Below are positions 1-61,054 of a DNA stretch of 64,000 nt, in pieces. Positions within the stretch are counted from its first letter, which is position 1. The number at the start of each line of letters is the position of its first letter. The translations under genes and the position numbers were made by a program. The notes beneath the pieces were generated by a model. The model did not search any database, was not told the DNA's origin, and saw only the letters and a list, made by a program, of their open reading frames with translations. This DNA is from Psammoneis japonica. Taxonomy: Eukaryota. The stretch covers positions 496,001-560,000 of the forward strand of contig QPGO01000011.1 in NCBI GenBank assembly GCA_008632985.1. Reading direction: 5' to 3'.

Positions 1-3000
1 TCAGCACGCATGCACAGGAAAGGGCAAGACCATTCATTCCTGCGGCCAGCTCGAATGGGCAAAACATGATGTCAACGATCGCTCTGTCAAGGTGCCCAAC
101 GGCTTGCAACATGTCGCCACCCCTGATGGCCATGTCACCCCAATTGACATCAAGGGTGGCCTGCCTCATGTTGCCATGTGACCCCACACTGACGCCGAAT
201 GGGACACCCTGCCCCATGTCATCCTTGCCGGTGATGACACATGGGATCCTTCCATCCTCGATCACTCTGTCACTGACGACGACCAGTGGTGCGACGCGAT
301 CTCTGACCTGCAGGACGATCCCACTGCCAACCTGTTTGACGAATGCGGCAACTGCCGTCACCGTGTTGTTGTCAACAAGGCCATCGTGTCCGCCTCCTTG
401 TCTGCCGATCACGCGTCCGCCCTCGATGACCACCTCATTCCGAATGACAACATGTTCTACGAGTGTCATCTGCATGCGATTGACCCCAAGGACGATGACG
501 TTCCGCCCCCGGAGCGCACTGTGCAGCCCAAGGACCCCCCCTGCGAGTCTCTTTGGCCTCACTTTGGTTTCCAACCTGCCGATGCGGTTCGTCGCACTTT
601 CGACTGCACCACGCAGTGCGCCCGCATGCCCGCCGGCACACACCTTAAGAAGGCCTGCAAATCGCCCAACCCTGCCCTCAATGTGCACCGCCGCAACGAG
701 CCTGTCGCCACTGACACCGTTCATGCCGACACCCCGGCCGTTGACTTCATCAGCGACCGTGCTCAAGTTGAGATCAGCAACAAGGTGCTCGGGATCCTGC
801 AAGCCCTCTTTGTCTCCAGCTGGCAAAGTGAGCCTCACCAGCAACACCAAAACTTTGCTGAACGTCGACACCAGACCGTGAAGCGCATGGCGAACACTGT
901 CATGGACCGTTTCGGTTCACCTGCCCACACATGGCTGCTGGCGCTCATGTGTGTGTGCTTCACACTCAACCACACAGCGTCCCCACATCTCCACTGGCGC
1001 ACGCCCCTCGAGACTCTCACTGGCTCCACCCCAGACATCAGCCCATTGCTTTGCTTTCACTGGTGGGAACCCGTGCACTTCCACCTCGATGACTCTGATT
1101 GGCCATCCGAATCCCGTGAGTTGCGTGGATGCTTTGTTGGCATTGCTGAGCACGTCGGCCACCAGATGACCTTCAAGATTCTCTCCGACGAGACTCAGAA
1201 GATCCTCTGCCGGTCCAACATATGATCTGCTGCCACCGATCCTGCCGTTCGAAACCTGCGTCTTGATCCTCCTGATGGGGAGCCACCTGAACCCATCATC
1301 AAATCTCGCCATGATGACAACCCCGTCGATTCACCCGATGGGGAGATCAGGACACCCAAGATGCCAGTTGACGGGCTCCAGTCCCAGGTGGGACTTTTTG
1401 TGACATTTGCCCCATGGAATTCTACGTGCGAGCTCTGTAGTTCGTACTCTGGTCAATGGACACATTTGTCTTCGACATGAAACAAACGGCCAAGTTTGCA
1501 GCACATGTGTCTCCATTCGCACTCGAAGTTTTGGACAATGCGCCTGCCCCACCATTCTTAAGACACTCGAGAATGGCGTGGAAGAAAAAAATGTTAAAAG
1601 TTGTTGAATGGATCGCCTGACAATTGGCACCAAAATGATGCAAAATTTCGCCAAAATCACGTAGAAATGTACGTGCGCGACATACGACGCGATTCAAAAA
1701 ACTGTCGATGTCACAGTTCAGCAGTGCGAGGTCCCACCCAGACCTGGAACGCATCAGTTTTCGATCCGCAAGACATCATCGGACACATCTTCCTCATGCA
1801 GCCACAAGAGGATGGACAACACCACAGAGCTCGCATCGTCAAGGCCGTCGAAGACCACGAATGGAAAGTGAACGGCAACCCCGAGCTCACCAAGTTCGTC
1901 TGCTCTGTCAACAACGACGAATACGAGGAAGTCCTGGCCTGCAATGACATCATGAATCACATTGAGCAAGAAGATGAAGACACTGCTGTTTGGAAATTTT
2001 GATGCATTGTGTCACACGAAGGACCTCTGAAGCCTCATGACCCAACCTGGAAAGGCTCAAGCTGCGACATTGTGCTTGAATGGGAAAGTGGGGAGATCAC
2101 GTCCGAGCCTCTTGCCATCATCGCCAAGGACGACCCTGTCACCTGCGCCATCTGTGCACGAGAGAATGGACTTCTCGACACTGATGGCTGAAAGCGGTTC
2201 CGCACCATCGCGAGGCGCCAGAAGAAGCCACTCCGCATGGCCAACCAAGCCAAGCTTCGCTCCTTCCGCACTGCACCTCGCCACAAGTGCGGATGCGAAG
2301 TTCCCCGGAACTGCAAGCACGCCATGTCACTGGACGAACGCAACAGCAACCACAAATGGGGAGACACAACTAATCTCGAGATGGACCAACTCGAGGAATA
2401 CGAAGTCTTTCATGACTGCGGGCTCTCCGAGTCTTCCACTCCTCCTGCGGGACACAAGAAGATCCGAGTGCACCCAGTGTGCATGACGTGAAACGCGACG
2501 GCCGCCACAAGGCATGACTCGCAGCCAATGGGCACCTCACGGATGCACCCATTGACATTGTCTGCTCCGGAGCAGTCTCCCTCCATGGCCTTCGGCTGAT
2601 GATTTTCCTGGCCGAACTCAACGAGTTGGAGACATGGGCCACCGACATTGGCAATGCCTGCCTTGAAGCCACCACCAAGGAGAAGCTGCACATTGCAGCT
2701 GGACCCGAGTTTGGCAAACTCGAAGGCCACATCCTTGTCATCCACAAGGCCCTGTGTGGGCTGCGCAGCTCCGGCCTCCGCTGGCATGAGCGCTTCGCCG
2801 ACTGCCTGCGAGCTGAAGGTTTCTTCCCCGCCGTGCCGAACCCGACATTTGGATGCGCAGGAACGGTGACCACTGCGAACATGTTGCCGTTTGTGTGGAT
2901 GACCTCGCCATTGCCATGAAGGACCCTCAATCTTTCGTCGACACTCTCACGGCAAAGTGCAAGTTCAAGCTCAAGGGTGCGGGACCGATTGAGTTCCATC

Positions 3001-4011
3001 TGGGCTGCAACTTTTCCCGGGATCCTGACGGCACCTTGTGCCTGTCTCCGCGCAAGCACATCGAGCGCATGGTCGACAGCTGCACATGACTGTTTGGGGA
3101 GAAACCTGCCACCAATGCCCTGTCACCTCTGGAGAAGGGTGACCACCCCGAACTGGACACTTCCGAACTGCTGGGGCCCGATGGCATTCACCAGCTCCAG
3201 TCTCTTGTTGGTTCACTCCAATGGGCAGTGTCCCTTGGTCGAATTGACATCACCACGGCCGTCATGTCACTCTCTGGCTTCCGAGCTGCGCCCCGTCAAG
3301 GCCACTTGGATCATGCCAAACGCGTCTGTGGGTGCCTCTCCAAGATGCGACACGGCGCTCTCCACGTTCGCACGGAAGAGCCCGACTGTTCGGATCTCCC
3401 TGCTCTGGCCTGTGAATGGATGCATTCCGTGTGCGGCAAAGCAGAAGAGATGATCCCGAAGAACGCTCCACCACCCCTTGGCAAGTTTGTCACTGCCACC
3501 CACTGCGTCGATGCAAACTTGCACCATTGCATGCTCACCGGATGCTCTGTCATGGGAATGCTCCACTTCCTCAACAAATTCCCGGCTGATTGGTTCTCTA
3601 AGAACCAAGCCACCGTGGAGACTGTGACCTGTGGGTCTGAATTTGTTGCCGCAAGGACTTGTGTCGAGCAGATTGTTGACCTGTGCATCACCCTGCACCA
3701 CCCAGGCATCCCGATCCGTGACATTGGTCACATGTTCGGTGACAACAAGTCGGTTGCAGACAGCGCCACCATCCCGCACTCCAAGTTACACAAGCGACAC
3801 ACCGCACTGTCGTTCCACCATGTGCATGAGGCAATTGCCTCTGGTTGCCTTGAGCTCCACTTCATCGAAGGCTCCCGCAACCCTGCTGACATTCTCAGCA
3901 AGCATTGGGGTTGCTCCCAAGTCTGGGGCCTTCTCTGCCCCCTCATGTTCTGGAACTTCATTCCATCCGAAGTCGAGTCTGTTTCTGTGACTCCTCAAGC
4001 AAACTGGGGAG
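1..4011 (+). mobile_element. Ty1/Copia (CoDi-like) LTR retrotransposon pol relic: integrase-RT-RNase H; 5' end outside window, inactivated
   Basis: Integrase (VATDTVHADTPA, ISDRAQVE, SEPHQQHQNFAERR), RT (WATDIGNACLEA, KALCGLRSSG, VCVDDLAIA) and RNase H (CVDANL, TCGSEFVAAR, MFGDNKSV, NPADILSKHWG) in Copia order. Stops, frameshifts and Tyr->Cys/His changes throughout. Confidence 0.95.
1370..1755. mobile_element. 386-bp non-autonomous TIR element (MITE) inserted in the Copia
   Basis: 25-bp imperfect TIRs (1370-1394 vs 1731-1755, 18/25 identical) and AGTT duplication (1366-1369, 1756-1759). Removing it restores ATG CCA GTT TTC GAT CCG (MPVFDP). Confidence 0.85.
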
Positions 4012-4603
4012 TGACAGGATTTGAGCAGGATTTGGGTGCGCACGAAATGTCGCGCGCTGTTTTAGTTTGCCACACACAGTTTTGTGTGCTTCAGTTCCGT
4101 GCATTCGCACGCGATGCAGTTTGCTTTCGAGCCACAAGGCTCACAAGAATGATGACAGCAGCCCGATTGTGCCGACTTGCACATCTTTCGGCTCCTGTGA
4201 CGGTCTCTGAGCAGAGACTCATCTGCCATTTAGACAGCAGTGAGGAGTCATTGTTTGAATTCTTGCCATTTGCCTTCAATTTCTGTCACAAATTGTGTGG
4301 CGGCATGCTGGACGACGCCATGGCGACTGCGATCAGGCTGCTGTGGTCCGACGACATTCCAACTTGGGCAAATGCGCTGCAACAACATGGACGGACCCCG
4401 CCCAGACTCTAGCCCCACTCCCAGCGCGAACCATGCAGTGGTTCGCCATGCAAAATCACGGATGCGCGCGACTGTTGCCCCGAACCATCACGTGGTTCGC
4501 TGCACGCCAGAAACGACCCGACACACAATGGCCAAAAAGGTAGAAGGTAAAGAGACATCTACAACAACTTTGCATCAGTCGATGCAGCAAAGTCTATTTG
4601 ACA
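4012..4603 (+). repeat. Putative 3' LTR of the Copia element
   Basis: Starts TGACAG immediately after purine tract GGGGAG (4006-4011) downstream of RNase H. Candidate end ...TTTGACA at 4603, where TpA returns. No 5' LTR in the window to confirm it. Confidence 0.5.
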
Positions 4604-5067
4604 ATGTGTGTGTGCTTTGTTTTAGTGGTTTACTACGTTCTTAAAAGTCTCCGTACTACTGCCGTCTTGTTCATCGTCGAACCACATTTTTCTGGTGAAT
4701 TTTGGCATTTGACCCGCTGGTACAAATTACACGTAGATTTTTACGCACGTCCTCCCGAACCAAATCATGGTTCGACAATTCTACGGGGTTCTTGGTACTT
4801 ATCTACGCAGCGAACCATTGAGTGGTTCGATAATATCTTCTGGTACTGTTCTACGGTGGTTTCTACGGGGTGATAAAATCACCGCCAACGAGCATGACGG
4901 TGATTTGACGGCGACCGTGCTTCATACACGAGTGGTTGCTGACAACATAATGCATTGGTAACGATGGCTTTTTGACTCTATTAAAAGGTTATATATGCGT
5001 AGGTACTACTTTATCGTGTCAGTCGCGAGTTTCACGTTGCGCAAGTTGCGAACCACTGAGTGGTTCG
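4427..5067. repeat. Five copies of palindrome CGAACCA-N5-TGGTTCG
   Basis: Copies at 4427, 4481, 4756, 4811 and 5049, plus a half-site at 4678. Confidence 0.9.
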
Positions 5068-5234
5068 ACGTTTTGCCCGAGTGGGGCTAGTAGATTCCCC
5101 CCGCCCCGCCCGCGGCGCGCGCTGGATGCCGTAGATGGAACCTTGAATGAAAGCTCGTTGCTCGTTGCTCGTTGTGGGTCTGCTATGTCAATTATAATCA
5201 ACAACGATAACAACTCTTACAATATAACGCAACC

Positions 5235-6212
5235 ATGTCAGCCAACGAAGCACCGGAAGAGAGGCAGCTACAGAGCAGACGACTTCACGATCGAGGTGGA
5301 ATTCCACAGTGGCTCTTCACGGAGCTAAGGAGAATCGAAGCAAATGACTCGACTCACACCGACTTGAACGTGCGGTACAGATACATTGGTACGGGAGGTT
5401 CCTACGCGATTCGGCGTGCACTCAAGAAAACACGTACCTTGAAAAGCATAACTGTGGGAGGAGTTGATCCTGAACCCGCGAGGAAAATTTTAGAGGGCAT
5501 TTGCAAGAATTCGTCTCTACGAGAAGTTCACGTGGAGCTCTTTTCAAACGATCCCACGAACGATGATGTACCGTACTTGTTGGGGAAAAAGTTAAAATCT
5601 AGAGAGAGCAATCTCGTCATTTTGAGGTTATTTTGGGGTCGTATTGGGACTCGAGGGCTAAGATCGATTGCGCGAGGTCTCGTGGTAAACACAACTCTAG
5701 CGGTATTGAATTTGGGGCACAACTCTTTGGGAAACGCCGGTACTATCCGGCTGTGTCGAGCTCTAGAACGCAATTCTACTCTGCAAGGCGTGTATTTGCA
5801 ACATAATGGAATTGGGCACGAGGGTGGACTTGCTATAGCTCAAGTTTTGAAGCAAAACACCAGTATCGAGACGATGAGTCTGGACGGGAATGACTTGGGA
5901 ACTGATGCCGTGTCAGAGTTTGGTAACGTATTGCAACGAGAAAACACGACCCTCAAGTTTTTGTACGTTAACGATGAACAGTCCTACAAGCACATTACGA
6001 TACAGATTGGATTCTGGTGTGCTCTCAATCGCGCTCATCGAAAGCATGCATGGGATGAGCAATTGCCTCAAGCAATGTGGTCAGCAATTCTTGCCCAAGT
6101 TCGAGACCGTCCATCCTTGCTTTATGGGTTGTTGCGAGAGAAGCCAGATTTGTTTTTGAACGCGAGTGGAAGTTTAAAGAGACAGTGGAACAATCGTGAT
6201 GAAAGCCAGTAG
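5235..6212 (+). CDS. RNI-like (NLRC3/CARMIL-type) leucine-rich repeat protein
   Basis: 325-aa intronless ORF with repeats NTTLAVLNLGHNSLGNAG, NSTLQGVYLQHNGIGHEG, NTSIETMSLDGNDLGTDA. Confidence 0.85.
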   Translation: MSANEAPEERQLQSRRLHDRGGIPQWLFTELRRIEANDSTHTDLNVRYRYIGTGGSYAIRRALKKTRTLKSITVGGVDPEPARKILEGICKNSSLREVHVELFSNDPTNDDVPYLLGKKLKSRESNLVILRLFWGRIGTRGLRSIARGLVVNTTLAVLNLGHNSLGNAGTIRLCRALERNSTLQGVYLQHNGIGHEGGLAIAQVLKQNTSIETMSLDGNDLGTDAVSEFGNVLQRENTTLKFLYVNDEQSYKHITIQIGFWCALNRAHRKHAWDEQLPQAMWSAILAQVRDRPSLLYGLLREKPDLFLNASGSLKRQWNNRDESQ

Positions 6213-6492
6213 TAAACAACACAATTCTTCAAAAGAGCAGTTTGCTCTATGTAACGGCCCCCGAGATTATAGACTTATGGGCAGCGAGGGTATTGGTTCT
6301 CTCGTGTGCTTTCCGAGTGACGCTAGCTAGTCACTCGGTCACCGACCACCCTTCCTCGCTTTATGGGTTGGTGCAAGGAAAGATGCAAAGGAAAGATCTT
6401 GGCGAGGGCAAGCAGTAAAAAACACATTCTAGCAGTTAACATTGGAAAGACATACACTCGTAATGTAGAAAAAAATCCAGAAAGTTCCCGCG

Positions 6493-9117
6493 TTACAGGA
6501 GCTTGCCGTGATGGCCCCCGAGATCATGAACTTCTGGTGGATAATGCTCTCGGTGTGTTTTTCGAGTGACACTTGTCACTCCGTTACCAGCGCTATTTGA
6601 GCATTCGTCATCCTGGTCGCGACTGCCGTCAATGTAGTAATTAAGCAACCGTGATGTGGCTGGATTCCCGGCGTCTACGCGGTGGTTGGGGTCGTTCTTC
6701 CTTCGTGCTTCCACAAAGTGTTTCTTGACATCAATAGCAAGCTTCTTGCCAAGCTCCACGCCCCACTGATCAAACGAGTTGATATCCCAGATAAAGCCCT
6801 GCACAGCCGTTCGATGCTCGTACATTGCAAGCAGCTGTCCAGTGGCATACGCCGTCAATTTCGGTAGCAAAAACGACATGCTTGGTCGGTTCCCCTTGAA
6901 GGTTCGGTGCTTAATAAGGTCTTCTCTGACACCCTCTGCTCGTACTTCTTCTGCTGATTTGCCGTTCGCAAGGGCATCGGGTTGTGCAAAAAAGTTACTC
7001 ATTAACTCGTCGTGCGCTGGTAGTTCCTCATTATCAAGGCAAAGGTCGTGCTGACTCTGCACAAAACCAATAAAGTCGCAGACGCATCGCTCTTGGCCCA
7101 TGTGCAAGAGTTGGAAAAACGAATGCTGACTATTTGTTCCCGGTTCACCAAAGTCGATCTCACCCACGTCATAATCGACCTCAATGCCATGGCGAGTCAT
7201 GTATTTTCCATTCGACTAAAACACAGGCACAGCAAATGGAAACATAACTGAGGATGCTTCCTCTCAATCAGAAATGCACATACTTCCATTTGTTGAATCA
7301 ACCTACCTCCATGTCTAACTGCTGAATGTGAGCAGGCAGCTTCAGCAAGGCTTCCGCATACGGAAGTGTCGTTCTTGTGTTGTACCCCATAAACGACATG
7401 TTCCAAACGCCGAGCATTCCCATGAGCACCGGTATATTTTTATCAAAGGGAGCACTGACGAAATGCCTGTCAATCGAGTTGGCACCCTGAAGCGGATACG
7501 AAAGAGCAGACAGTGAGAAATAGGGCTGCAATTCATGAGTGTCAATTCTTCAGAAGACATGAGAGCATACGAACCTTCAGAAACTTTTCAAACAGGTCAT
7601 ATCCATACAAGAGACTGATAGGGACGGCACCGGCAGCACTGCAAACACTGTAGCGTCCTCCTACCCAGTCCCAGAAGCGGAAAAAGTAGCGCTCGGTGTC
7701 AATACCAAATTTCTCCACCTCTTCGAGAGACGAGACAGATGCACAAGCCACCACATGCTTCCTTACAACTTCCTTATCATTGCCCATAAAGTCCCACAGC
7801 CACTGCCGCATGGTTCGAGCGTTGAGCATGGTTTCAGCAGTAGTAAAAGTCTTTGAGACAATGACAATCAACGTCTCTTCAGGATCAAGATCTGCGCAGG
7901 TACGCTCAACGTCAACAGGGTCGACATTGCTAAGAAATCTCAAGGAGTATCCCAAAGCCGCATTGATGCCCTCTGGCTCTGTTTTTAGGACTTCGTGAAT
8001 AAACTCGGGTCCCAAATAGCTTCCGCCGATTCCCACAGACACAATGTTACGAAGTCGCTTTCCAGTGTATCCACGGATCTCGCCAGAACGGATTGCTTCC
8101 GTAAAGTACTTTATTTGATCAAGGACTTCGTGAACTTCCCGTATTACATCCATGCCATCAACAAAGACAGTGCCAATCTGGTCACTATCCGCTCGAAGTG
8201 CAGTGTGTAAGACGGCTCGCTCTTCGGTAAAATTAATCTTTTCACCGTTTACCATTGCGTCAATCATGCCTTTGAGATTCTGTCTTTCCGCCAAATCAAA
8301 CAAGAGATCCATCGTCTCTGACGTGACGCGTTGACGGGCGAAATCGAGGTATACACCATCGTGTTCCGCATACATTTCGTCACAACGATCCTCATCCGCC
8401 AGTAGATCTCGCAAATGGGTTGCTTTGATGAATTCGGCATGTTTTTCTAGACGTTTCCATTCCGGAGTTGCTGACACGAGGGGATTTTCTCTGTCCAACA
8501 AGAGAGATTTAATGTCTGAGACAAGCTGCCTATTAGCCCGGTGATGTCTTTGGAATCCCTCGTGGTCTTCGAAAGGCATCGCTCCTTCTTCAACGTGAAT
8601 TCGTGGTCCATTGGGACCAAACGGCGATGGAATACTTATTTGAGGCATTTTCAGATTGCTAAGGGGGTTCTCACTCTGCTCTGCCTTTTCACTACCCTCT
8701 TCCATGTCACTAGCATGAGAGTCATCACTTTGATGTTGTATGAATCCAAATCTGGCCTTATCCGATGGTTCAATATTTTCTGCGTCTTTTTTGCTCTCAC
8801 GAGATGGTTTGGTCGAAGCATATAGCTGTGCCTGTGCGTGTCTGTAACCATTTCTGTTCCTCCGACTTGATTGATAGTCTATGCCAAACTGAAAGAATGA
8901 CCTATGTTGTGAATTATACCGTACTGTAGCGAAACTGGAAAGACATTTCACGTAGAAAAGGTAAGGGTTAGCTTTACCCGAACTCCGACGTCAAAGCTGT
9001 GTCAATTCTGACACTCATTCCGTCGAGACAAACTTACCTGCTTGTGATCCCAAAAAAAGATAAAACACAGATACAACAGAGAGCTGAGGTAACTCTTTGT
9101 ATTGATAAACGTCTCAT
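6493..9117 (-). CDS. GPI: Glucose-6-phosphate isomerase, predicted plastid-targeted; exons 9117-9038, 8934-7575, 7486-7307, 7215-6493
   Basis: Motifs [62 protein letters not shown] introns keep frame. Exon 1 encodes a signal peptide ending ITSS/F. Confidence 0.95.
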
Positions 9118-11443
9118 CTTGTTAACATGTGTTATTGGCTTTGGAAATCAAGAGATGTGTCGCATTGGCGAACAAACAGTGGCAACACAGCAAATGGGCG
9201 GGAAATCCGCGAGTTCAACACAAGCGGTGGTGGAAGCGGCTGAAGCTGGCGCACGGTGAAACAATGAAGCACTGGCATCGTAGACAATTAGTATCATTCT
9301 ACGTGCATACGTCACCGTTGTCACACCGCATTCCATCTGCATCTCCGGGTTGTTCGTTCTTTAGAGGTTGAAGCTGACAGGCACTGCATTTTGGTGCGCG
9401 ACAGTGCGCCTGAACGATTCTCCCTGCCGTAGTTACACTTCTTCTTCTCCGCAAGCTACGACTCCATGTAATTTCTCCTGACCTGTTGTGCTCCAACACA
9501 ACTGTCCATGCGGTCGTGCCCGCCCCGACCCCCATGGGCCATGGGGACCATGCCTTCACCTGCCCTAAAACAATGCACACAAGATCCCTCTTTCAAACCC
9601 CATGTCCCCCCTCGATGCCATCTGCGCCATCATCAAAACACTGCTCCCCCCCAGTGGTCTGCGCCACTCTTGCCAACAAGTTCATCTAGACCCTGCCGGT
9701 CTTCTTGCTGACCACCCCTTGAAATGCCCCACCGACATTGGTGATCAACTTGCCCCGGCTCCACACGACCACCGGAAGCCTACCCACCCACCAATTTTTG
9801 GCCATCGATGTCACTGTGCCACCAGCCCACCCGCCTCCTGCACCTGGTTTGCCGCCCCTGAAAACCTGTTAAAGAATGCTCACCTTAGCAGCACACAGGA
9901 CAAGCTCCTTGGTTCAACTGCATTGTCCACCTGCCACTCCGACATCATCCCCTCGATGCTGTCGACCAAGCAGGACTTTTCCTCCTCCCGCCCTCACCTT
10001 CGATCACCTGGGTGGTGTCTGGCACCACTTTCATGTCTTCTTCTTTGGCATCTTCACCACAACATCCTCTTCTGTCCCTCCTCTCTCTCCCAAACCACAC
10101 TGGACTGATCCATCTTCTCTCTCCAGCAACTCCCCAAGCTTCCTTCTCCACCTTCAAAAACTCACTCCCAGCCCCCTCTGACTTCCTCACACCCACTCCA
10201 ACAATGCCTGGAAACAAGTGTTGCCAGACTGCTTTGGCGCCTCCCATCATGCCACAAGAACCCCCCAGCTTTGGGCCTCACACATCCTCAGCCTTGACTT
10301 TGGTGTCACTCTCTCCACCCACCTCTCTGCACGCTGCCAAGCCCTCCTTCTCTGACACCCAATTGTCAACTCCCCCTCCCGACCATCTGTCCGCACCCTC
10401 TTTTCCTTCCACCACACACTCCTGCCAACCCACCCATTCCATCACCACAGACCCCTGACACATGCACAATTGAGGGTTTTGCTTCCATCAATGTCAGCTC
10501 ACATTGTGTTGACTGCCCACAGATGACAGCAGGTTGAAAATTCTGCATGAGAAAACAAATCTGCATCAACAAGGGAGCAAAGTCAAGCTGAGTTAATGGG
10601 GTGACACTGCTGAAGTGTCAACCAGTCATCTTTTTGCACACTGTGCCCACGTCAAAGGCTGCAACACAGTGCCCCCCACTGTCCTTTGTGCACTTTTTAG
10701 TGTGCATTGTCAAAATTGTCAACAAGTCGAATTTGAAAAATGCCAGCAACAGCACTCAACAAAATGCACTTGTTTTGTGTGCTGGGCTTTCATCTGACAT
10801 CTCATCAGCTTTTTTGCACAAGCTTCAATCAAATGCATGCAATGTTTGGTTCAATTGGGGCTGACATCTTTTTTTTGCGGTGCATGGTTTGGTTTCCTTT
10901 TAATGGTGGTCATCAGTTTGAAGTTGGTTTTAACTTTGTCCTCCATGCTCATGTGCATGCATCCCTTGCACATGTGCAGCTTGCCTCATGCATGCACACA
11001 GCCCATGCTCATTTTAAATTTTTCTTCATGCTTCCCAGATTTGCACAGCCCATTGGTTTGCGGTGTTTTCAGCTTTTTTTTCACGTGTGCAATTTTCTGC
11101 ACACTTCACAACAGCGCACCTTCTCCTCAAATGTCAGAAAGCAACAGCGTGCTGCCATGATTCATGTGGATTCCACGTGTGGTCACAAATCTGCAAATTG
11201 ACAACCTGCCATGATGGTGAAAGACTTTGCCCCATTGGCCAATGACAGCAGCTCAGTGCAGGGTGAGACCTGCTGTCCTTCTGGTGGTTGGTCAAGATGG
11301 GTTTTGATTGGGGTGTTGCTTGAGTTTTGTCATCCAGAACACCAAGCCAGCAGCACGCCATTGTGTGTGTGCACATCACAAACTTTTCTGCAGCAATGGC
11401 ACAATGGCACATGTCAGAGTTTTGCTTCCAGAATCATTGCAAG

Positions 11444-11750
11444 TCACCACAAATGACACTCTTCAAACAAGGCATGTGCAAAAAGAGGTTCATTGGTTTT
11501 TGATGCATTTGCCAGCAAGAGTGCACCTGTCTTCTCCAATTTTCATGTCCAGATCCAGAAAGACTGCAGGCGGTGCTTGTTCCCACAGCTCTCAGAATCA
11601 CATGCATGAAGCGGGGCTCACCACAAATGACACTCTTCAAACAAGGCATGTGCAAAAAGAGGTTTGTTGGTTTTTGATGTGTTCACTGATGTTGCACCCG
11701 TCTTCTTCCAATTTTTGTGCCCAGATGCAGAAAGAGGACTGCAGAGGTGG
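11444..11750 (+). repeat. Two-copy direct repeat, period ~174 bp
   Basis: Identical 47-mer tcaccacaaatgacactcttcaaacaaggcatgtgcaaaaagaggtt at 11444 and 11618, followed by diverged but alignable sequence. Confidence 0.9.
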
Positions 11751-12074
11751 AGAGTGGGGAGGCAACCCATTGGAGGTTGCCTGAGTTGCAAAGCTCATTT
11801 TTAAAGGCCTCCCAAATCTCTCCACTGTTTCTGGTCCATGCTCCAAACACATCATTGATGGACCATCTGCAGCACAGGAGGTGTGGGGTGAACTCAGTCA
11901 TTGCCACATGACTTGTCATTCATGCAGTGCCTTGCCCAGTGTTGCACACATGCAGGTGGTGCTTGTTCCCACAGTTGTTCTGGCAAGTGCATTCTGTGGG
12001 CAGGGGTGGAACGGGGCACTTGACATTGCACACCAGTGTCCACGTTGCTCCAGAACAAGTGGCGCCAGATGCAC

Positions 12075-12507
12075 GGCAAGTCTGTGTTGCTGCTCCCATT
12101 GGTCATGTTGCTTCATCTGTGTCACACTCTCACAATGTGGTCTGCACTTTTTGGCAATGAACAAGGTGGATCAGAGCAACAGCACTTCTGTCACAAACTT
12201 GCCTGCTCCAGAATTAGCAGTGCTGGATGCACTGGTGAGTTCATGTTGCCATTCCTGTGGTTCATGTTGGTTCATCCATGTCACACTCTCACAACGTGTT
12301 TCACACTTTTTGGCAACAAACAAGGTGGAGTGGCAGTGCTTCCTCAATTTATGGAACAGCAGCTCCTGCTGCTGACTTGCCTGCTCCACAATCAATGGTG
12401 CCAGGCACACCGGTGAGTCTGTGTTGCCGTTCCTGTTGGTCATGTTGGTTCATCCACATTGTGCTCTCACAATGTGTTCTGCACTTTTGGCAACAAATGA
12501 GGTGGCT
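12075..12507 (+). repeat. Three-copy imperfect direct repeat (~160-177 bp period)
   Basis: Core tcatgttg.ttcatc....ctctcacaa.gtg..c..acttttggcaa..aa..aggtgg at ~12075, ~12234 and ~12411. Confidence 0.85.
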
Positions 12508-14993
12508 GCTGGCAGTGGCATTTCAAGAAAGAAAACTGCAGCTGCTGCTGCAAACTCAATTGGTGTTCTTTCCATCAGCATCATTTGAATTAAACACAAA
12601 TGACAAAATGAAATGTTTGCAACGCAAATGATTTTAATTTGAAGGTTTTGCAGGACAGAGGGTGGGAACTCTCACAGGGAAAATGGGTGGCTGTTTCACA
12701 GTGAAAATGGGGGTCAGACCCCATGGCATGAAAATGTTCATCTGTCACAGTTGAAATGCCATCGCCACATGCACAACTGGCAAGGTGTCACAGCACAGAT
12801 TTTTCACCCACAAAAGGGGAGAAAATCACTGTGAGAAAGGTGGTCTCAATCACTGCAACATGTGCTCTGATGCGCTTGCCTGGTGTGCTGTCTTGTTTTG
12901 TTTTCCTGATCTTCTGACACAGGAGGCAGTGTCCTTGCTTGACTGCTGAGTCTGTGGCTTGAGTTTTTTGGTGGAGTGGTTGTGTGCAACTCCCAACAAT
13001 GTGAGCAGATTGTCAATCAGAAACCTGGGCTGCATGCCTGAACATTTTTTGTCAATTTGAAAATGTGTGTGTGTGGGTGGGTGGGTGGGGCTGCAGCTGA
13101 GCCTGCTTTGCCATCTTTTGTCAGAGAGCACTCATGTGTGCATCCATGCCCTTGTGCTCAAAAGAGTGCACACCTTGTTTTCATGTGGGACATCTTGGCC
13201 TCCTCCTCTGTGGCACTCATCAACAAGGAAAACAGCAGCATGTGCCCAAAGAGCCTCCCAAACAAATCCAGCCAGGTGAGCTTTCAACATCTTGCCTCAC
13301 ATTGGAGTCTGAAACCACAGCTTCAATGACCAGTCAAGAAAAAATGGCCCGCGCTGTTGAACAATGTCTGAATCAACCAAAACAACCTTGATCACCCAAC
13401 AAGCAGGGCATTTGCTTTTTGAGAGTCAGCCTGACACGAGACAGTGAGAGGAGGACAGAAAACAAAGTGCTCTGTTTTCCAACCAATGTCCACTGTTCTG
13501 GTTTGGTTGAGTGTGCAGCAGGTGGCTCAACCATCACCCTTGTGTTCTCCCAGACCAGCCTTGCTGTGGTGCTGCAGCCCTTCTGTGAGACCCACATTGT
13601 CACGTTCTTTCCCAGTTGAGAGCTTCAAGGAAGCACGCTGTTGCCTTCAAAATCAGGGGAAAATGTTCATGCATTGTTTGCATCTGCCAGGCAACCACCC
13701 AGTGCAATGTTGTTGTGTGACAAATGAGCTTGCTGAGACAGCTCTGCCTGCTTGCCATGGGAGCATTTTCAGCTCAGACTCTCCAGCTCAGAAATCCAGT
13801 CTTTGGGCTCTCTGTTTTGTTCCCTTGCTCATCTGCTTTGAGTTTGAGAGCTCTCCCATGTCAATCTCTTCATCAGACAGCTTTTTCTTCATGTGCTCTG
13901 CCACTTTCTTGTTCATGTGCTGGCCCACCTCCAACTGTTTCTCCTCCAACTCTTCATTTCACCATGAGCTCAAGCTGTCATGACCACATCACACTTGTTG
14001 ATGCTGGCGTGCTTGCAGTGGGAGCATGGAGTTGCATCTGGAGTGACTGCCAACTTCTTTGCACTTGAACCTGCCATCATTCTCAGTGCATTTTGTCATT
14101 TTGTCAAAAGGGCCACCAGAAGTGTCGTGGCTGGAATCACTGCCAGCAGGAGCACTTGTTTTCATGCTTTCCTCTTTGTGCATCTCTCTCTGCAGACAAA
14201 AGCAGCCCAGGAGCGCACCATTCTGGTGAGTCTGTGTGGTGCAATGTGCTGGAAGACACTTTCTGTGTCACTCATCTTGGTGCCTTGCATCATGCGTTGG
14301 CTCTCCCATCTCTTTGCAAAACTCAACTTCGCAGTTTGGAGGGGCAACTCCGGCCCACGCTTTCTTTTCCCAGCCCTGGAGTGTGACATGGCTGTTGCAT
14401 GGCTTCAGATGCCAACACTTGCTCAACCTGTCAAAATGCCATTTGGTGCAGCAGTCACCTGGCTGCATGGGTTGCTCAACATTTCTCATGATGCTTGGGT
14501 TTGAAGAGGATTTGCGGCTCTCTTGCGACAAAATTCTTGGTTGGGCACAGCACCACGCGAGATGAGCATCCCACTCTGCAACAAAAATGGTGCTGTGTGC
14601 TCCACAGGTGCAAGTTTTCCTTCCTTTTGCTTCTTTGGGTCTCATGTGCTGTGGACCAAGAAGACAATGCCTTTTGCCGTCAGGGTGACTGGGAGCCCAT
14701 GACACTGTGCCATCAACGAACCCCAAACATCTGCTGGGTCTGTTGCTGTGTCCGCCTTGTGTGTTTCTGCCCAACCCCCCTGCACTGACAGAAAGAATTG
14801 TCATTGTCAACCCCGCAAGCAGTGGGCTTTCTTGGTTCATCCATTTCAGCACATGAAACTGCTCCAACAGAGACTTTGAGAAGTTTTGCAGGCAAGTGCC
14901 CTCTCAACCCCCGCCCACCCCACTTTCGAGAAATTCCGTCTGCTCTCTTCCGTGCATGCGGTTCACGCACAACGCACAACGCCGCAGAGGCCC

Positions 14994-15028
14994 TTGACCG
15001 TTGACCGTTGACCGTTGACCCCTGACCG
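14994..15028 (+). repeat. Heptamer tandem (TTGACCG)3-TTGACCC-CTGACCG
   Basis: Read directly; lies at the right border of the TE domain. Confidence 0.9.
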
Positions 15029-15116
15029 ACAAAATCCAAAACGACAAAGGTGTTCAGCTACTATGATACATAGAGAGTAGCTGTTCCCATTGCAAGTTTT
15101 GTTGATTGCACCTACA

Positions 15117-16555
15117 ATGTACGACTCCCCGACTGAGAATCTTGGATTCAACTCCGGACGATACACTTCGTTTGGACGTCGCGGTCGACGAGAAAAGGTG
15201 ACGACAACCAAAACTGTTGTCGGCAGCGAAGCATCGCCCTCTCCTGGTAAAAGATTCCCAACTCGTCGAATGCACTCCACGGAGTCAAGGGCAAGGTTGT
15301 TCGGGTGCTGGGCCACAGTGATCATCTTGGGGTCCCTTATACTGTACGTGTCATTGAGACCAAAGGGCCCATCAGAAGACGCTTCTGTTATAAAGTCCAA
15401 CGTAAACTTGAGACAAAATAGTTCACAAATACGCCGAGAAAGCCATCCGCCGGAATTGTTTCGAGACATCATTATTGAAGAGTACCACAGTAAAGGCTCC
15501 ATCAACATTGCCTGCTATGTAAAGCTTCCAGACTGGTGGCATAGGGAGAATTCAGTCCCTCGAGCGCAGAAATTCTTGATGAAATTGACGACTGATCACT
15601 CGTATGCCGCCAAGGAAATTGACGCCTTGCAAAAAATCAGCATTGACATGAAAGAGGCAAGACGTCTCAAGATGCCTTGGTTAGTGGCCGGAAGTTCGAA
15701 CATTAGCAATCCATTTTACTGTCGCAGTGACGACAAAGAAGACTCCGAGCCGTGTCCAGAGGCTCTGTCATTTCCAGAGTCCTTTCCCCACAGAGTACAG
15801 GAACGGCTACGTGCCAGACCGTACGTGGCGGCGCTTGTGGTTCCATTTCTCCAAGGACAGGGCTACGTGTTCGATGAAGTAAAAACAATGGCAGATCTTC
15901 AACGTTTCATGAAGAGTATACTGGGGCAGTTAGCTCTTGCACACAGTGTAGGGATCAATAATTTGGATCTCAGCGGGATCGCAATGTTCTCGTCGACAGT
16001 GACGGCGATGCGGTGTTGTTTGACTGGAATGGCGCTATTGGCTTGGGTGAAAAGCTTTACAACGCCGATAACAATTTCGGCATTATTCCACCCGAGGCCT
16101 GGATCGAACAAGTAGAGGGACATGAAGTCAAAATGATGTCGGTTTCTGCTTTTGATGTTTGGTCGGTTGGCATCATGTTTGCTAGGTTGATTTTCTTTCC
16201 GTGCCGATGGGCCTCCCATCACACATATGAGCGAACAAACGATCGACTGCGGGCCACGATACTCGCTCTTGGTGGAAATACTGTCATTCCAGTAGACAAG
16301 GAAATGAGCGTGGACCTGGCAGAATTTGTTGGGATGAATCAAACAATTGAATCAAACACAGGCATCCTCCCGCACCTTGTGGATAAGCATCAAAAAGACA
16401 GTTGCCCAGAGACGTCATTTGAATTTCTCGATAGCCTTTCAGACAATGACAGACAAAAGGCGTTGGATTTCCTCAAATCAATGATGAAGATTTCTCCTCT
16501 AGACCGTCTCGATTGCAACTCATTATTGAAGCATCCTTTTCTTTCCTCTGTTTAG
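15117..16555 (+). CDS. Membrane-anchored divergent Ser/Thr protein kinase (one frameshift at ~15975)
   Basis: N-terminal TM (WATVIILGSLILYV). Kinase motifs AHSVGINNLDLS..RNVLVD, LFDWNGA, PPEA, DVWSVGIMF, LDFLKSMMKISPLDR..LLKHPF. Confidence 0.8.
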
Positions 16556-17198
16556 TCGATCTGCCCCGTGGTGCCTGCGCTATCACTGTACGATTACTGC
16601 ATGGTCAACAAGGCTCAAAGACGCACCTTGTCTATCAGCGTAAAACGAATGCGATAGTGCATCCTACTGTATTCCAAGAAAAGGGAAACGAAGCCGGTGT
16701 TCTACCGTAGATTATTAATGCTCTTACTAGCCCGCAGTGTACTCCACATTGAACATGAAAACAGGAGCGATTTGTGTCCGCCATCTCGTGCAATTTGGAT
16801 ACTCCGTCGTGCACTTGTGGAATTCTGCCACTCGCATGGTCACAAACACAGAGGTCTTCAATTCTGAGCTATATCGGGGGGCAAAATGGAGCTTCTAAAC
16901 AAGCTCAACAAGCCAGATGGTGGTCGGGTTTGCCAGCACCTCACGTTTTACCCTGCTACTGTAGCGGGTTTTGACAACCGGAACGCGAGTTGAGTTTTAT
17001 TAGACGGATCAACCAGTGAGTAGAGGAAACCAACACCCCCAAAATTCAGTTTTAGACAGATCATCGGTGAGTAAAGCCAACCAATACTTCCGCATCTTGT
17101 TTCTCTGTGTTCTACAGGCGGGCAGTTGCGACTCTTGTCGTGGTGAAGTTACACTCTTAGTAGATGATTACAGATCGGGGACAGATACCATCCTAAAG

Positions 17199-18803
17199 CT
17201 AGGAGCTACGGTCAACAAGAACAATCTCATGCTGCTGGGGCTCAATGTTCCACTTCTTGATCACAGTGCCATCACTGGTATGAGCAGAAAGCTCGTCGCC
17301 AATGTCGGCAGTAAAAATAAACTGCTCTTTGGGTGCGACCTCGGCAACAAGTAAGCCGTTTACCGAGACCGAAACATCTTTGACATTGTTGTTGGTAAAG
17401 GGGAATTCCACGACACCCGTTTTCGGCTCATCCCAAACGATCCCGGCAAAATCCTTTACGTGCAAAACAGCATTCTTTGCCTCTGGAGCATGCTTGACGT
17501 CCGGCTCGTCCACCAGAGCAAAGCGCATACCTGCATCCCAGTCTTCATTTTCAATTTTCTCCAACTTTCCGCCTGCATCAGAATATGTGGCATCAAAGTT
17601 ACTGTCCCTGAACCAGAAACGAGTGTATAGTCCATAGATCAACGCTCTTGACATGGAGCTCTCGTTTGGTCCCCCGCGATGTGTGATCTGGTAGTCAAAC
17701 ACAACGGCATCCCCCATGTCAACAAGAGGCACCCGCCAATGATCTGGAGGACATGCACCCATCGTTGCTCGAAACCTTTGCATTTCTAGAAAGGGACTCC
17801 CTCCCTGAATTAGAGCCTCATTGAGAGCAGGCGCGTGCATCGGAACACCGCTCAAGTGCGACGACCCCATGCAGAACTCCGTCGGACCATGGGCATACGT
17901 AGTATTCTCAACAAGTGGTATAAACACACTGGCGGCGAAGGGTGGCAAGTCATGCCCGCCAATTCCTGATACGTCAAAGCTCTCGCTCGTCCAAATGTAG
18001 CCCATATCATCGTGCCAGTGCATTGTTGGAGCACCACTCTCCGAAATCACCGAACCTACCTGGCTCAAGACGACATCCGGTCCCAGCACTTTCTCGTGAC
18101 TCATAATATTGAGGATATTATCGTTTTGGAACATTTCATAGCCACCCAGCCACTGGGGAAGAATGACATCATGGCGCTTCATGCCTCGATCTTGCACAAT
18201 ATCGCGTGCTCTAGAGTCTGTAGTCTTCGTATCCACCCTACTGATCTGGCCTGTATGTATGGCGTAGAGATAGTTGTCGTACTTGGTGCGATACTCCTCT
18301 ACGGTTTCCTTGGGGATGATGTTTCGCAAAACGAGCAAACGGCACTTGTTGAACACGAGCGCTGCTTCTTCAGGATCAAAGTCTTCAGCAGAGACGTCAA
18401 ACTCTCTTTCCATGCAGTCGTAGTCGTTAACAACACTTTCCAAGCGACGGGCGTGGCGATCCGCGTAGGTAGTAAACACCTCTTCCGCAGCCGGGACGTT
18501 GCATTGCGACATGCTCTCATCCTCTTGTTGTCCCATCGCCCCAAGGGTCAACTTCATGAGCTTAGCCAGGGAGTCGTCAGCTTTATCGTTACCTTTGACC
18601 TCTGATAGTAGAATCATGGCATTCTTGAGCACATCGACCTTGTCAACCTCCGTGCTGGAGAGGGAGGATTTTACCAACTCTAAAACGGCATCGACGCTCG
18701 ATGTTGGTTGCTCAGCTTCTTGTTGGACCCCAGCCTTATCCTCGGAAGCGGAGATTCCGCAGACAAGCGCCACAATAAGCACTAAACTTCGGAAAAGATT
18801 CAT
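17199..18803 (-). CDS. Secreted PhyH-like Fe(II)/2-oxoglutarate dioxygenase
   Basis: Signal peptide MNLFRSLVLIVALVCGISA. Motifs WHDD (HxD), GPTEF..GS, GDAVVFDYQITHRGGPN..R. An upstream ATG at 18848 is an alternative start. Confidence 0.85.
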   Translation of the reverse strand: MNLFRSLVLIVALVCGISASEDKAGVQQEAEQPTSSVDAVLELVKSSLSSTEVDKVDVLKNAMILLSEVKGNDKADDSLAKLMKLTLGAMGQQEDESMSQCNVPAAEEVFTTYADRHARRLESVVNDYDCMEREFDVSAEDFDPEEAALVFNKCRLLVLRNIIPKETVEEYRTKYDNYLYAIHTGQISRVDTKTTDSRARDIVQDRGMKRHDVILPQWLGGYEMFQNDNILNIMSHEKVLGPDVVLSQVGSVISESGAPTMHWHDDMGYIWTSESFDVSGIGGHDLPPFAASVFIPLVENTTYAHGPTEFCMGSSHLSGVPMHAPALNEALIQGGSPFLEMQRFRATMGACPPDHWRVPLVDMGDAVVFDYQITHRGGPNESSMSRALIYGLYTRFWFRDSNFDATYSDAGGKLEKIENEDWDAGMRFALVDEPDVKHAPEAKNAVLHVKDFAGIVWDEPKTGVVEFPFTNNNVKDVSVSVNGLLVAEVAPKEQFIFTADIGDELSAHTSDGTVIKKWNIEPQQHEIVLVDRSS

Positions 18804-22063: not shown

Positions 22064-23750
22064 CATGTTTTGTTCAACACTCTGTCTTGTCTTTCACCCA
22101 ATTCTCAGTCATCATGGCAGTGTCAGAGCTGGTGCACTGTGATGTTCACATTCCCAGAATGGGCATCAAGAATGGCGTGATGGCACAATCATTGCAATTG
22201 ATCATGGTGCATTGCACCATGTTGGTCCCATGGTTGCTTGTGCAATTGCTGAGTTCTTTGTGTGCATTCACAGATGTTTTTGAAGACCAAATCAATGCAT
22301 GGTGAGACAGGGGGCAGTTGTGTGTCTTTGCCAGTGGCTGGAAGAGGGCGCAACAGGTTCGTCCTTGGAAAAGGAAGCAGGACCATCCTGATGCCATCAT
22401 GTCATTTGTCCACAACACTGGTGTTCCTCAAATCCTTGTTGTGTCAGATGGCACACTGGAAACAGTGGAAGGCCAGAGCAAAGACATCTGCAAGGAACAC
22501 AGACCCAGAGTGGTGTGGTCTCTGTGCCACAAAGCCCCTGGCAGAACAACCCAGCACAGCCATCCACTCATGAGTCACAGAAAAGGTGTTGACACCCTTG
22601 AGCTCAAGACATGGGCCTGGACTGGACAGTTCACCAGAGGGAGCAGAATGCAAAAATGGCAAATCATTGCCAAGGCCTTGTTGGGGTGCTCTGATGTGGG
22701 CAGTTGAGCTTGGATGGATTGAAATCTTTGTTGCCATCTCACTCATGTCCTCCTGCCAGGTGGCACCACAAGTTGGACACCTGGGTGAGGTGCTCCACAT
22801 CTTTGGGTGCTTGAAGGCTCACCCAAAGTCTTCACCAGAGTGTTTCTTGACAACATCGCTGAGCCATTCTTTGATGAGAGCCAGCTCACTGCAAGCATGG
22901 CTGAGAAGAACACGACCACCCTGGTGCAGCTGAACCATTGAGGCCAAACATGGCAGAGACATGCAGGAATGGCTGGCATGACCACTGCTTGCTTTGTTGA
23001 TGCAGATCACTGTGGATGTCATGTGATGTGCAGGTGCAGTCCTGTTGTTCATCCAGCGAGTGCTCATTTTGCACAGCTCTGAGACAAGGCAGAATGCCAC
23101 AGAGTCATCTGCTGCTTTTGGGCTGGAGTTCATGGCAATGAAAGCTGCCATGGAGCAAATCAGAGCCTCTTGCATTGCAAGCTTCAGATGCCAGGAATTC
23201 CCCCTGGGTGGGGCCACTGACATCTTTTGCATCAAGAACTGAACTGGACCAGAGCCCATGTTGCAGAAAAGAAGCACAATGCAGCTGCACACCACAGGAC
23301 TCATGAAGCACAAGCAATGGGAATTGTGAGCATTGCTCTGGAGGACAGATGCTCAAACCCAGTGGATGTGCCAACCAAGTTGTTTGATGCCTGGACAGAA
23401 GCTCCTCTGGGAAATTGCAAGTCACATCTCATGGTGAGTCCCAAAAGGGGACACACCAAGCAGGTGTGCCACACACCTGGAAGTGGTTTTGTCATTTCAT
23501 CCCCAAAAATTTAGAAATCACCCTGGAATGAGGCAGCACCAGGGGGGGGGGGGGGGGTGGGTGAACAAACAATGCTGATGCACTGTCACAAATGTGGGCA
23601 GTTGTTCACCATTGGCAATTTGCCCACCGTCACTGACACAGTGGCCCCAGCAGCAGTGCAACTGACTCACAGCTCCAGAAGAACCTGTTGATGTTGCTCA
23701 ACACTCTGTCTTGTTGTCTTTCACCTCATTCTTGGCCATCATGGAAGCAT
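22064..23750 (+). mobile_element. Internally deleted Copia relic with probable LTR remnants
   Basis: Integrase (KRKQDHPDAIMSFVHNTGVPQILVVSDG), RT C-terminus (WAVELGWIEI..SLMSSCQVAPQVGHL..VLHIFGCLK) and RNase H (FVDADH, QNATESS..FGLEFMAMK, KKHNAAAHHRTHEAQA). Flanking direct repeat tcaacactctgtcttg..tctttcacc at ~22073 and ~23698. Confidence 0.8.
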
Positions 23751-60840: not shown

Positions 60841-61054
60841 GCTGTAGTGTATGCTACTGCGTTTCAACGACTCACTGGCTCTCCATCGGCAACAATGGAT
60901 GCGTTGCTATCATGGTGGGGTGCCGTTTCTCTGTTCGTCTTGACGGTGTGAGTCAGTTGAGTCTATTAATACTGCGATTTGTGGTAGAATCTACGTGTGA
61001 CGTCATTCTCATTTTTTCGAAATTTTGGATCTTTCGTCGTCGCTCGTCATCAAA

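Follow-up and report, generated by a model that had tools for sequence, protein, structure and literature searches.

Introduction

Repeat-induced point mutation (RIP) of ascomycete fungi is a genome defence that introduces one type of transition, in a dinucleotide context, into repeats on both strands and in place, leaving sharp compositional islands and leaking into adjacent sequence. To our knowledge, no other system that mutates repeats within the chromosome was known before a preprint of 2026. In that preprint, DNA of giant viruses and virophages integrated in the chlorarachniophyte Bigelowiella natans is described as undergoing TpA hypermutation (Mettrop et al., bioRxiv 10.64898/2026.01.13.699255). 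Here we analyze a 64-kb stretch of DNA (the window, meaning the whole stretch at its full length) that carries three islands almost devoid of the dinucleotide TA, the first of which is occupied by a Copia-type long terminal repeat (LTR) retrotransposon. We propose that the islands record targeted TpA hypermutation, A to G on either strand, of transposon-derived DNA in a diatom-like nuclear genome, by a process of the same kind as that of B. natans; we assign this reading a probability of roughly 0.72.

As described in the available text of the preprint, the mutation rate of two viral insertions in mutation-accumulation lines of B. natans exceeds that of the remaining genome ~1000-fold, A>G and T>C changes account for 230 of 231 mutations there, with the GC-biased ones all at TpA, and the activity, found by Illumina resequencing in 11 of 15 lines, is episodic (bioRxiv 10.64898/2026.01.13.699255). 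The same text reports 124 TpA-poor, CpA+TpG-rich clusters in the 95-Mb genome and an enrichment of reverse transcriptase (RT) and DDE domains among TpA-poor coding sequences; the authors' preferred candidate, named solely because a homologue exists, is an ADAT2-like adenine deaminase (bioRxiv 10.64898/2026.01.13.699255). The process itself is thus already described in B. natans, and what is new here is the host group, together with leads on footprint, context preference, and recurrence. Our full-text literature searches, whose coverage excluded subscription journals, returned no report of TpA hypermutation in diatoms.

Results

Three TA-poor islands

The window was tiled at 1 kb, every TA was listed, and island limits were then set from the TA positions; the remaining 43,232 bases outside the islands are referred to as the background. 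Three sharp-edged islands were identified at positions 1-4540 (island 1; 4540 bp), 9887-15058 (island 2; 5172 bp), and 19699-30754 (island 3; 11,056 bp). They contain 19, 10, and 18 TAs, respectively, against 172-418 expected (Poisson tails relative to the background TA frequency of 3e-52 to 8e-151), which corresponds to observed/expected (o/e) ratios of 0.09, 0.03, and 0.02; for island 1, 221 TAs are expected from base composition. The background holds 1636 TAs (o/e 0.56), with TA retained in its introns and intergenic DNA, and has a CpG o/e of 0.97 and a GC content of 0.48. The CpG o/e is 0.80 in island 1, 0.21 in island 2 (65 CG), and 0.16 in island 3 (108 CG), and the GC contents are 0.56, 0.49, and 0.49. 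The longest TA-free run extends over 2424 bp within the islands and over 177 bp outside them, and the island edges are sharp to ~130 bp. A reading made from the letters alone (the sequence-only reading) had stated that the Copia element lost almost all TA and that two domains at about 10-14.8 kb and 20-30.9 kb are poor in both TA and CG; both statements are borne out, the domain limits being refined to those of islands 2 and 3.

The loss of TA is mirrored in its transition products. TG and CA are in excess inside the islands by an amount that matches the TA deficit, and the summed frequency of TA, CG, TG, and CA is 0.2425 in the background and 0.252, 0.2415, and 0.2412 in islands 1, 2, and 3, respectively. 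Such near-equal sums are predicted if transitions interconvert these four dinucleotides.

The Copia element in island 1

The Copia-type LTR retrotransposon occupies positions 1..4288 on the plus strand, with integrase, RT, and RNase H frames and its 5' side truncated by the start of the window. In a tblastn comparison with a full-length relative of 1881 aa (P0121), residues 620-1880 align to positions 2-3980 in three frames (match segments 2-1252, 1688-2479, 2479-2844, and 2820-3980). For the RNase H part, 9635 relatives were retrieved at E <= 0.001 (best E 1e-121, 67% identity); the Pfam RVT_2 matches are weak (24.8 and 26.8 bits, under the 31.6-bit cut-off). One of the relatives, P0123, is from the diatom Fistulifera solaris. 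The element is dead, with seven in-frame TGA stops (at Arg positions 179, 1223, 2000, 2515, and 3087, at Trp position 2189, and at 2787), two frameshifts, and a change of the Tyr of the RT YVDD motif to Cys: the active-site stretch IYEYVAVYVDD of relative P0122 reads HCEHVAVCVDD in the translated window. Nevertheless, Copia keeps long open stretches, and its conserved Gly, Pro, and Trp residues are retained as well as between intact homologues. The GC content of Copia is 0.57, compared with 0.48 in the background.

Direction, context, and strand of TA loss

Tyr codons offer a direct view of the direction of TA loss. We defined 32 conserved Tyr codons as those with Tyr in at least 60% of ten intact homologues. 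At these positions Copia has 18 TGY, 9 CAY, 1 TAC, and 4 other codons; hence 27 of the 28 TAY-derived codons are now TGY or CAY. In the homologue-to-homologue control, Tyr is retained in 66% of 389 aligned pairs. The conversion of Tyr codons to TGY and CAY shows that TA loss is mutational and affects both strands. The loss also depends on the preceding base: the expected initial A of a codon persists in 88 of 103 cases when A, C, or G precedes it, versus 1 of 12 after T, where G is found in 6 of 12. Thus, the process is A>G at 5'-TA-3' on either strand. Nine of the 27 Tyr-codon changes are antisense, which disagrees with sense-only, element-limited editing of the ADAR type, and the destruction of TpA disagrees with fungal RIP, with its C>T at CpA, TpA excess, and AT-rich islands.

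The same conclusion emerges from composition at homologous positions. Over the same 861 bases of the RNase H region, the mean TA frequency is 0.0405 in 29 intact relatives and 0.0023 in the window, CG is 0.0471 and 0.0477, and TG+CA is 0.1618 and 0.1942; the TA drop of 3.8 points is therefore paired with a TG+CA gain of 3.2 points. For a broader comparison, 80 of 448 confirmed Copia-related metagenome loci were kept (341 kb; all intact and TA-bearing), and in all 80 the TA o/e is at least 0.23 and no TA-free run exceeds 336 bp. At the protein level, 5 of 150 representatives and 1 of 120 close matches among the Copia relatives are Tyr-less; they come from unrelated ENA and JGI assemblies, so that other genomes share this state. 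One of them, P0145, carries His at 5, Cys at 3, and Arg at 2 of ten conserved Tyr columns, and in a comparison of P0444 with the window the outcome is the same at 6 columns and different at 4.

The few TAs that survive point to an extended context. For the 28 TAs of islands 2 and 3, the 5' neighbour is T in 35 and A in 2 of the 56 strand views, against ~14 each expected from background TAs or from the local TG/CA pool (p ~1e-9), and 20 of the 28 lie in a YTAR context. This suggests that R-T-A is a preferred target and Y-T-A is refractory, a possible extended preference of the mutator.

Two further explanations were considered and rejected. Horizontal acquisition from a TA-free donor is excluded by the conversion of the Tyr codons, and selection against TA in the element by the destruction of catalytic and conserved residues, as in HCEHVAVCVDD versus IYEYVAVYVDD.

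CpG loss and its relation to TA loss

Among 44 consensus Arg codons of Copia, 28 are CGN, 2 are AGR, and 14 are CAY, CAA, TGY, TGA, or TGG. Accordingly, 14 of 42 conserved CGN codons have become TGN or CAN, versus 27 of 28 TAs gone at conserved Tyr codons, and the per-site rate of TA loss would be ~8-fold that of CpG loss if both started together. TA is at a common floor in all three islands, and CpG loss ranges from about one third to more than 80%, increasing with other signs of age. Thus, CpG decay is a separate, slower process that is already under way in Copia. Its direction, CG>TG/CA, is that of CpG decay in these Arg codons and at 14 of 38 listed variable places (described in the following section) where other copies have CG. 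Deamination of 5-methylcytosine is its presumed cause, because DNMT5a mediates CG methylation of diatom transposons, as stated in the accessible part of the source (PMC9998398). The products, with Arg CGN codons turned into His, Cys, Gln, Trp, and stop codons inside the islands, show no difference in kind from the CpG decay of methylated transposons.

CpG loss does not require TA loss: 17 of the 80 metagenome relatives, which belong to other hosts, have a CpG o/e below 0.45 with a TA o/e of 0.40-0.87 and open frames. The compositional spread within this set (locus L026 with TA o/e 0.23 and CpG 0.84; loci L007, L015, and L051 with CpG o/e 0.15-0.21 and TA 0.45-0.61) probably reflects different hosts.

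These data modify several of the earlier claims. The three stops that the sequence-only reading ascribed to CGA>TGA changes (1223, 2000, and 2515) are all TGA at Arg positions, Arg being present in 4 of 5, 4 of 10, and 10 of 10 aligned homologues, respectively, and at 1223 90% of the other-copy depth reads CGA; however, they belong to a set of seven. Likewise, Copia is still CpG-rich as described (o/e 0.80), but a loss of 14 out of 42 Arg codons is not slight. The notion of two processes that converge on TG/CA agrees with the constant four-dinucleotide sum and with their differing rates and footprints. The proposed precedence of TA loss over CpG loss stands as a matter of rate and fails as a strict order, both losses still accruing per copy, and the two are uncoupled in rate but not in place, for they hit the same targets. 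The two-stage age scale proposed on their basis is so far consistent with the three islands, and these only.

Variation among family copies in the sample

Four coded sequencing runs (X1-X4), which derive from one sample and probably represent the source of the assembly, were searched for contigs aligning to positions 1-20000 of the window; only contigs at least 90% alike to the window are represented, and 40 of 295 variable places are listed, 38 of them inside island 1. In X1, 8406 contigs fall on Copia, with a summed word depth of 51,000-132,000 versus ~55 on the flanks; this depth is not a copy number and is read only as very many similar sequences in the run. At least 99% likeness is shown by 1739 of the placed contigs. 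The variable places of X1 comprise 61 A>G, 68 T>C, 62 C>T, and 46 G>A changes and 48 transversions. Run X2 gives no cover over 1-4002 or 9339-15341, and no evidence about expression; none of the runs listed as containing the stretch is recorded as RNA.

We classified the 38 listed places of island 1 singly. At 14 of them (3 in adjacent pairs of unknown phase) the window has TG or CA and other copies have CG; at 7 (also 3 in adjacent pairs of unknown phase) the window has CA or TG and others have TA; at 5, the window has CG and others TG or CA; and the remaining 12 show other changes, neither of the last two classes including adjacent pairs. For example, position 3057 belongs to a CAC codon in the window and to TAC in 98% of the other-copy depth, with Tyr in 9 of 10 homologues. 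At 2563/2564, where all ten homologues have Tyr, the fractions fit TGC in ~81%, CAC in ~16%, and TAC in ~3% of copies, and at 637/638 they fit CA in 46%, TG in 35%, and TA in 19%. The outcome at one and the same site therefore differs among copies, TpG and CpA both being present. Since copies differ at both TA and CG sites, both losses continued after the copies diverged, and these post-divergence losses, together with TA losses shared by most copies, argue against one burst as well as against a fixed sequence in which TA loss precedes CpG loss.

A 390-bp segment at 1365..1754 (plus strand) adds to this picture. It is missing from many family copies and from homologous proteins, is flanked by the 5-bp repeat CAGTT, and is skipped by a joint in four X1 contigs (depth 14,902) and one X4 contig. 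The segment holds 8 of the 19 TAs of island 1, the other 11 lying outside it, and has a TA o/e of 0.30 and a CpG o/e of 1.04; at position 1514 within it, other copies have TA and the window has CA. In our reading the segment was inserted later, after the lineage had been mutated, as would fit an episodic process.

Island edges and spread beyond the element

Contigs that match Copia up to 4288 continue with different letters in X2, X3, and X4, and the listed depth falls from 120,268 at 3977 to 36.8 at 4316. TA loss, however, runs 252 bp past this end of the family homology. The margin at 4289..4540, to which no strand applies, is CpG-rich (23 CG; GC 0.60) and contains 1 TA versus ~16 expected from the neighbouring sequence (Poisson P 1.3e-6). 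Its frequencies of TA (0.004), CG (0.092), and TG+CA (0.195) add up to 0.291, and those of the neighbour at 4801-5075 (0.069, 0.080, and 0.139, respectively) to 0.288. The margin thus resembles its TA-rich neighbour with the TAs moved into TG and CA.

Further TA-free, CpG-bearing margins were found at 9887-10001, 14912-15058 (0 TA, 14 CG), and 19699-20022. At four of five edges TA loss exceeds the CpG-poor core by 115-324 bp, with no excess at the right edge of island 3, and immediately outside the islands TA is partially depleted, at 0.016 (9400-9886), 0.028 (19300-19698), and 0.026 (30755-31100) versus 0.038 in the background. From these margins we infer that the TA process operates in integrated DNA, on a domain somewhat broader than the core of CpG decay.

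An inverted-repeat array, GAACCA-N5-TGGTTC, is present in five copies at 4428..5066 (plus strand), on both sides of the TA edge at 4540 and between Copia and the next gene. Five matches compare with 0.08 expected, none of 100 shuffles reaches five, and the motif occurs nowhere else in the window; the array could be regulatory or part of another low-copy element.

Content of the two older islands

Recognised mobile origin is confined to island 1, through Copia, and to a Copia remnant within island 3. Neither of the two older islands has an assigned strand. Island 2 (9887-15058) is TA-free and CpG-poor, with internal repeats and no recognisable coding potential, its 37 open reading frames (ORFs) giving no credible Pfam match. 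Summed word depth amounts to 1200-2900 in the interval 10673-12673 and to 58-69 in 13341-15341; the stretch 13096-15058 sits on one 3987-nt contig of ordinary depth, and the part of the island on this contig has zero TA over 2424 bp. Repeats at 11444-11744 and 12046-12551 are diverged and tandem-like, with units 70-83% identical, and many contig joints fall there.

Island 3 (19699-30754) is a composite of decayed, TA-free and CpG-poor sequence. A tblastn search with 150 Copia homologues identified within it a decayed RNase H/C-terminal remnant at 22301..23487 (plus strand), the best match being to P0238 at 22574-23272 (30% identity, E 2e-20); the 7 conserved Arg codons of this remnant include no CGN, and its 5 conserved Tyr codons no TAY. 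The 83 ORFs of island 3 gave two weak, sub-cut-off Pfam matches (E 0.004 and 0.0095), and a protein-atlas search with the longest of them returned scores of 0.83-0.85, with low recognition, and was uninformative. Self-comparison of the window detected no LTR pairs and no similarity of the islands to one another.

The products of TA loss are unevenly distributed between strands in places, with 77 CA versus 43 TG at 10002-10600 and 85 TG versus 49 CA at 20023-20600. Such blocks of opposite bias might reflect the orientation of decayed elements, or transcription or replication.

Discussion

Comparison with described systems

The closest parallel is B. natans, insofar as the available text of the preprint describes it. 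Both cases show A:T>G:C changes only, at TpA only, giving TpG or CpA depending on the strand, in discrete regions of foreign or mobile origin that have a raised GC content and form TpA-poor, CpA+TpG-rich clusters of kilobase size. The window thresholds of the preprint give a mixed picture: 18 of our 64 kilobase windows pass, with 5 consecutive ones in island 2 and 11 in island 3 but only 2 in Copia. The differences concern host, target, and extent. B. natans is a rhizarian, whereas the host here is a diatom-like stramenopile; the background TpA frequency is 6.0% in the former and 3.8% here, so the window is not from B. natans. The targets described there are viral, and the clearest one here is a family of LTR retrotransposons, represented in the run by very many similar sequences. 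Depletion in our islands is near total (o/e 0.02-0.09), in contrast to the active giant-virus region of B. natans, which still has a Rho of 0.45. CpG, diatoms, and retrotransposons do not figure in that text as available, and here CpG decay overlaps the islands with a narrower footprint; likewise, the refractory YTAR context and the spread past element ends, both seen here, are not described in it.

Among other systems, RIP shares with our islands the in-place dinucleotide transitions on both strands, the sharp islands, and the leakage into flanks, but its direction is opposite: RIP turns CpA into TpA, enriching TA and AT, whereas TA is destroyed here and GC rises from 0.48 to 0.57 in Copia. 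The ADAR and APOBEC editing of animals resembles our case in that hypermutation is recorded in retrotransposon copies, and ADAR favours U or T before the edited A, according to the discussion of the preprint (bioRxiv 10.64898/2026.01.13.699255); unlike such editing, the changes described here affect both strands in a strict context, continue past the element, and extend to non-retroelement DNA.

A model of TpA hypermutation and its alternatives

We propose the following scenario. Three transposon-derived, presumably silenced islands would undergo a dinucleotide-specific hypermutation until almost no TA is left, 5'-TA-3' suffering A to G changes on either strand to give TG on the same strand and CA through the opposite one. 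The leading candidate for the chemistry is an enzymatic deamination of adenine to hypoxanthine, which would be read as G, by a putative deaminase. The mutator would act in place, after integration, and its chromatin domain would extend past the element by a few hundred bases; it would recur in episodes during the history of the repeat family. A second, slower process, presumably deamination of 5-methylcytosine, would remove CpG from a slightly narrower core of the same islands. In-place, domain-wide action is suggested by the 252-bp spread past 4288, into sequence that has the GAACCA-N5-TGGTTC array in common with its TA-rich neighbour, the graded depletion outside the edges, and the TA-free part of island 2 of ordinary depth. 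Given the episodic activity in B. natans (11 of 15 lines in the accessible text), TpA loss would be a poor clock.

A first alternative retains the targeting and replaces the chemistry: the T of TpA, rather than the A, would be enzymatically modified, for instance oxidised to 5-hydroxymethyluracil (5hmU) or 5-formyluracil by a TET/JBP-type dioxygenase working on silenced DNA, and would mispair with G, resulting in T>C, or A>G as seen from the other strand. TA is self-complementary, so that sequence cannot separate a change of A from a change of T. 5-Formyluracil is known to mispair with G, and 5hmU is enriched at TpA in dinoflagellates. In addition, a 5hmU-making enzyme of dinoflagellates, which belong to the same supergroup, has been reported to silence transposable elements, as the accessible part of that source states (PMC11572971). 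On the other side stands the preference of the B. natans authors for an ADAT2-like adenine deaminase, formed from homologue presence alone in the text available. We regard modification of T as unlikely.

A second alternative moves the editing before integration, with retrotransposon RNA or cDNA being deaminated at UA/TA during retrotransposition and a TA-free copy then inserted. The best-characterised island is indeed a retrotransposon, sense outcomes outnumber antisense ones (18 versus 9), the 390-bp segment retains TAs, most copies share the outcome at some sites, and deaminases edit LTR elements in vertebrates, according to the accessible part of the source (PMC4866542). Several observations are nonetheless hard to accommodate: one third of the Tyr-codon changes are antisense; A is unaffected outside TpA, unlike the looser neighbour preference of ADAR as characterised in the available preprint text (bioRxiv 10.64898/2026.01.13.699255); the deficit of TA persists for 252 bp after the family homology ends and tapers off outside other edges; and island 2 includes TA-free contig sequence of ordinary depth without a recognisable element. 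Moreover, according to the B. natans text, clonally grown lines acquire this signature in DNA viruses that are integrated. Editing before integration thus appears distinctly unlikely.

It is very unlikely that no special process is involved and that the islands are old neutral DNA at the equilibrium of a genome-wide bias against TA and CpG. While TA is under-represented even in the background (o/e 0.56), and the larger two islands show age and decay, Copia counts as young by its long open stretches, its retained Gly, Pro, and Trp residues, and the 1739 contigs that are at least 99% alike, and yet it has lost 27 of 28 conserved Tyr codons, background introns and intergenic DNA keep TA, the edges are sharp to ~130 bp, and the background CpG o/e is 0.97.

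Finally, TA and CG could still be present in the cell if sequencing or polishing had miscalled modified bases of silenced DNA, given that base modifications cause systematic errors in some long-read base callers and that the library type of the runs is not on record. Such an artefact is barely credible. Word-based contigs of the four runs, although not independent of the assembly, reproduce the island sequence and show many diverged copies with the same kinds of change. Miscalls on opposite strands would contradict each other and generate new TA, of which there is no sign; Tyr-less relatives of Copia are known from ENA and JGI assemblies that are unrelated; and the B. natans result, by the text available, was obtained by Illumina resequencing.

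Several points weigh against in-place TpA hypermutation in a diatom-like genome. The sense excess is not significant (p = 0.12) but has the direction that RNA-level editing would give. The outcome TGC at 2563, shared by ~81% of copies, means that part of the TA loss may have been inherited from a multiplying mutated ancestor, and the restriction to 40 of 295 places and to at least 90% likeness hides unmutated copies; the four runs, being from one sample that is probably the assembly source, provide no independent support. The chief difficulty for a domain-wide mutator in constant action is the 390-bp segment, whose 8 TAs and full CpG content survive; such a mutator should have erased these TAs unless the segment is young or the process episodic. 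The margin 4289-4540 could be a variant end of the Copia copy rather than flanking DNA. By the thresholds given in the available text of the preprint, only two of the first four kilobase windows of Copia pass (those starting at 1 and 3001), CpG having contributed little to TG/CA there. Lastly, the putative assignment to diatoms is drawn from protein identities of only 55-68%.

Host genes and other features of the window

Ordinary host genes are located at 48209-51562 (minus strand), 53961-56290 (plus strand), and 58373-63318 (minus strand) and encode SMC3 (two ORFs), an NAD-glutamate dehydrogenase (two ORFs), a MOSC-domain protein, a zinc alcohol dehydrogenase, and a serpin; none of these regions departs from normal TA or CpG content. 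The SMC3 piece has a best match of 55%, and its named matches are nearly all diatoms, including Odontella, Cyclostephanos, Thalassiosira, Mayamaea, Seminavis, and Fistulifera. The 354-aa alcohol dehydrogenase has a best match of 68%, with named matches in Bacillariaceae, Thalassiosira, Polarella, and Triparma. A protein-atlas search with the SMC piece returned only 'Eukaryota', and an exact look-up of eight host ORF proteins in the protein collection found none present. These matches place the window in a diatom or a near relative of diatoms that has no closely similar proteome in the database. No deaminase gene was detected among the window ORFs scanned against Pfam.

Two minus-strand ORFs, at 31262-32098 and 35147-36031, share 67% nucleotide identity over ~550 bp (31515-32053 versus 35404-35950) and represent a diverged local gene duplicate. 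One 3800-nt contig of X2 covers 5097-7215, 7307-7485, and 7574-8934; the skipped 91 and 88 bases look like two spliced short introns, and X2 may be a transcript assembly, though it is not recorded as RNA.

Implications

A wider proposition, on which we see the balance as even, is that diatoms hold an editing-type defence that rewrites every accessible TpA of their transposons, the same as the chlorarachniophyte process and either ancient in the Stramenopiles-Alveolates-Rhizaria (SAR) supergroup or reinvented, and that this defence prefers R-T-A, spreads a few hundred bases past the methylated core, and recurs. The TA-free islands flag decayed transposons that protein searches miss, as the 120 ORFs of the two older islands yielded no credible Pfam match, and they distort composition-based gene finding and horizontal-transfer screens. 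If the proposed process is real, such islands would serve as an annotation mark for dead mobile or foreign DNA, and TA loss combined with CpG decay would provide a coarse two-hand clock. A natural editor of double-stranded DNA that converts A to G in a strict dinucleotide context would be relevant to base editing, and shared islands with a faster and wider TA loss lead to testable predictions on how the mutator is aimed relative to DNA methylation. Diatoms include genetic models in which the enzyme could be sought. A TpA-specific process in a diatom-like genome would shift this phenomenon from the curiosity of one alga to a possibly widespread defence in marine primary producers.

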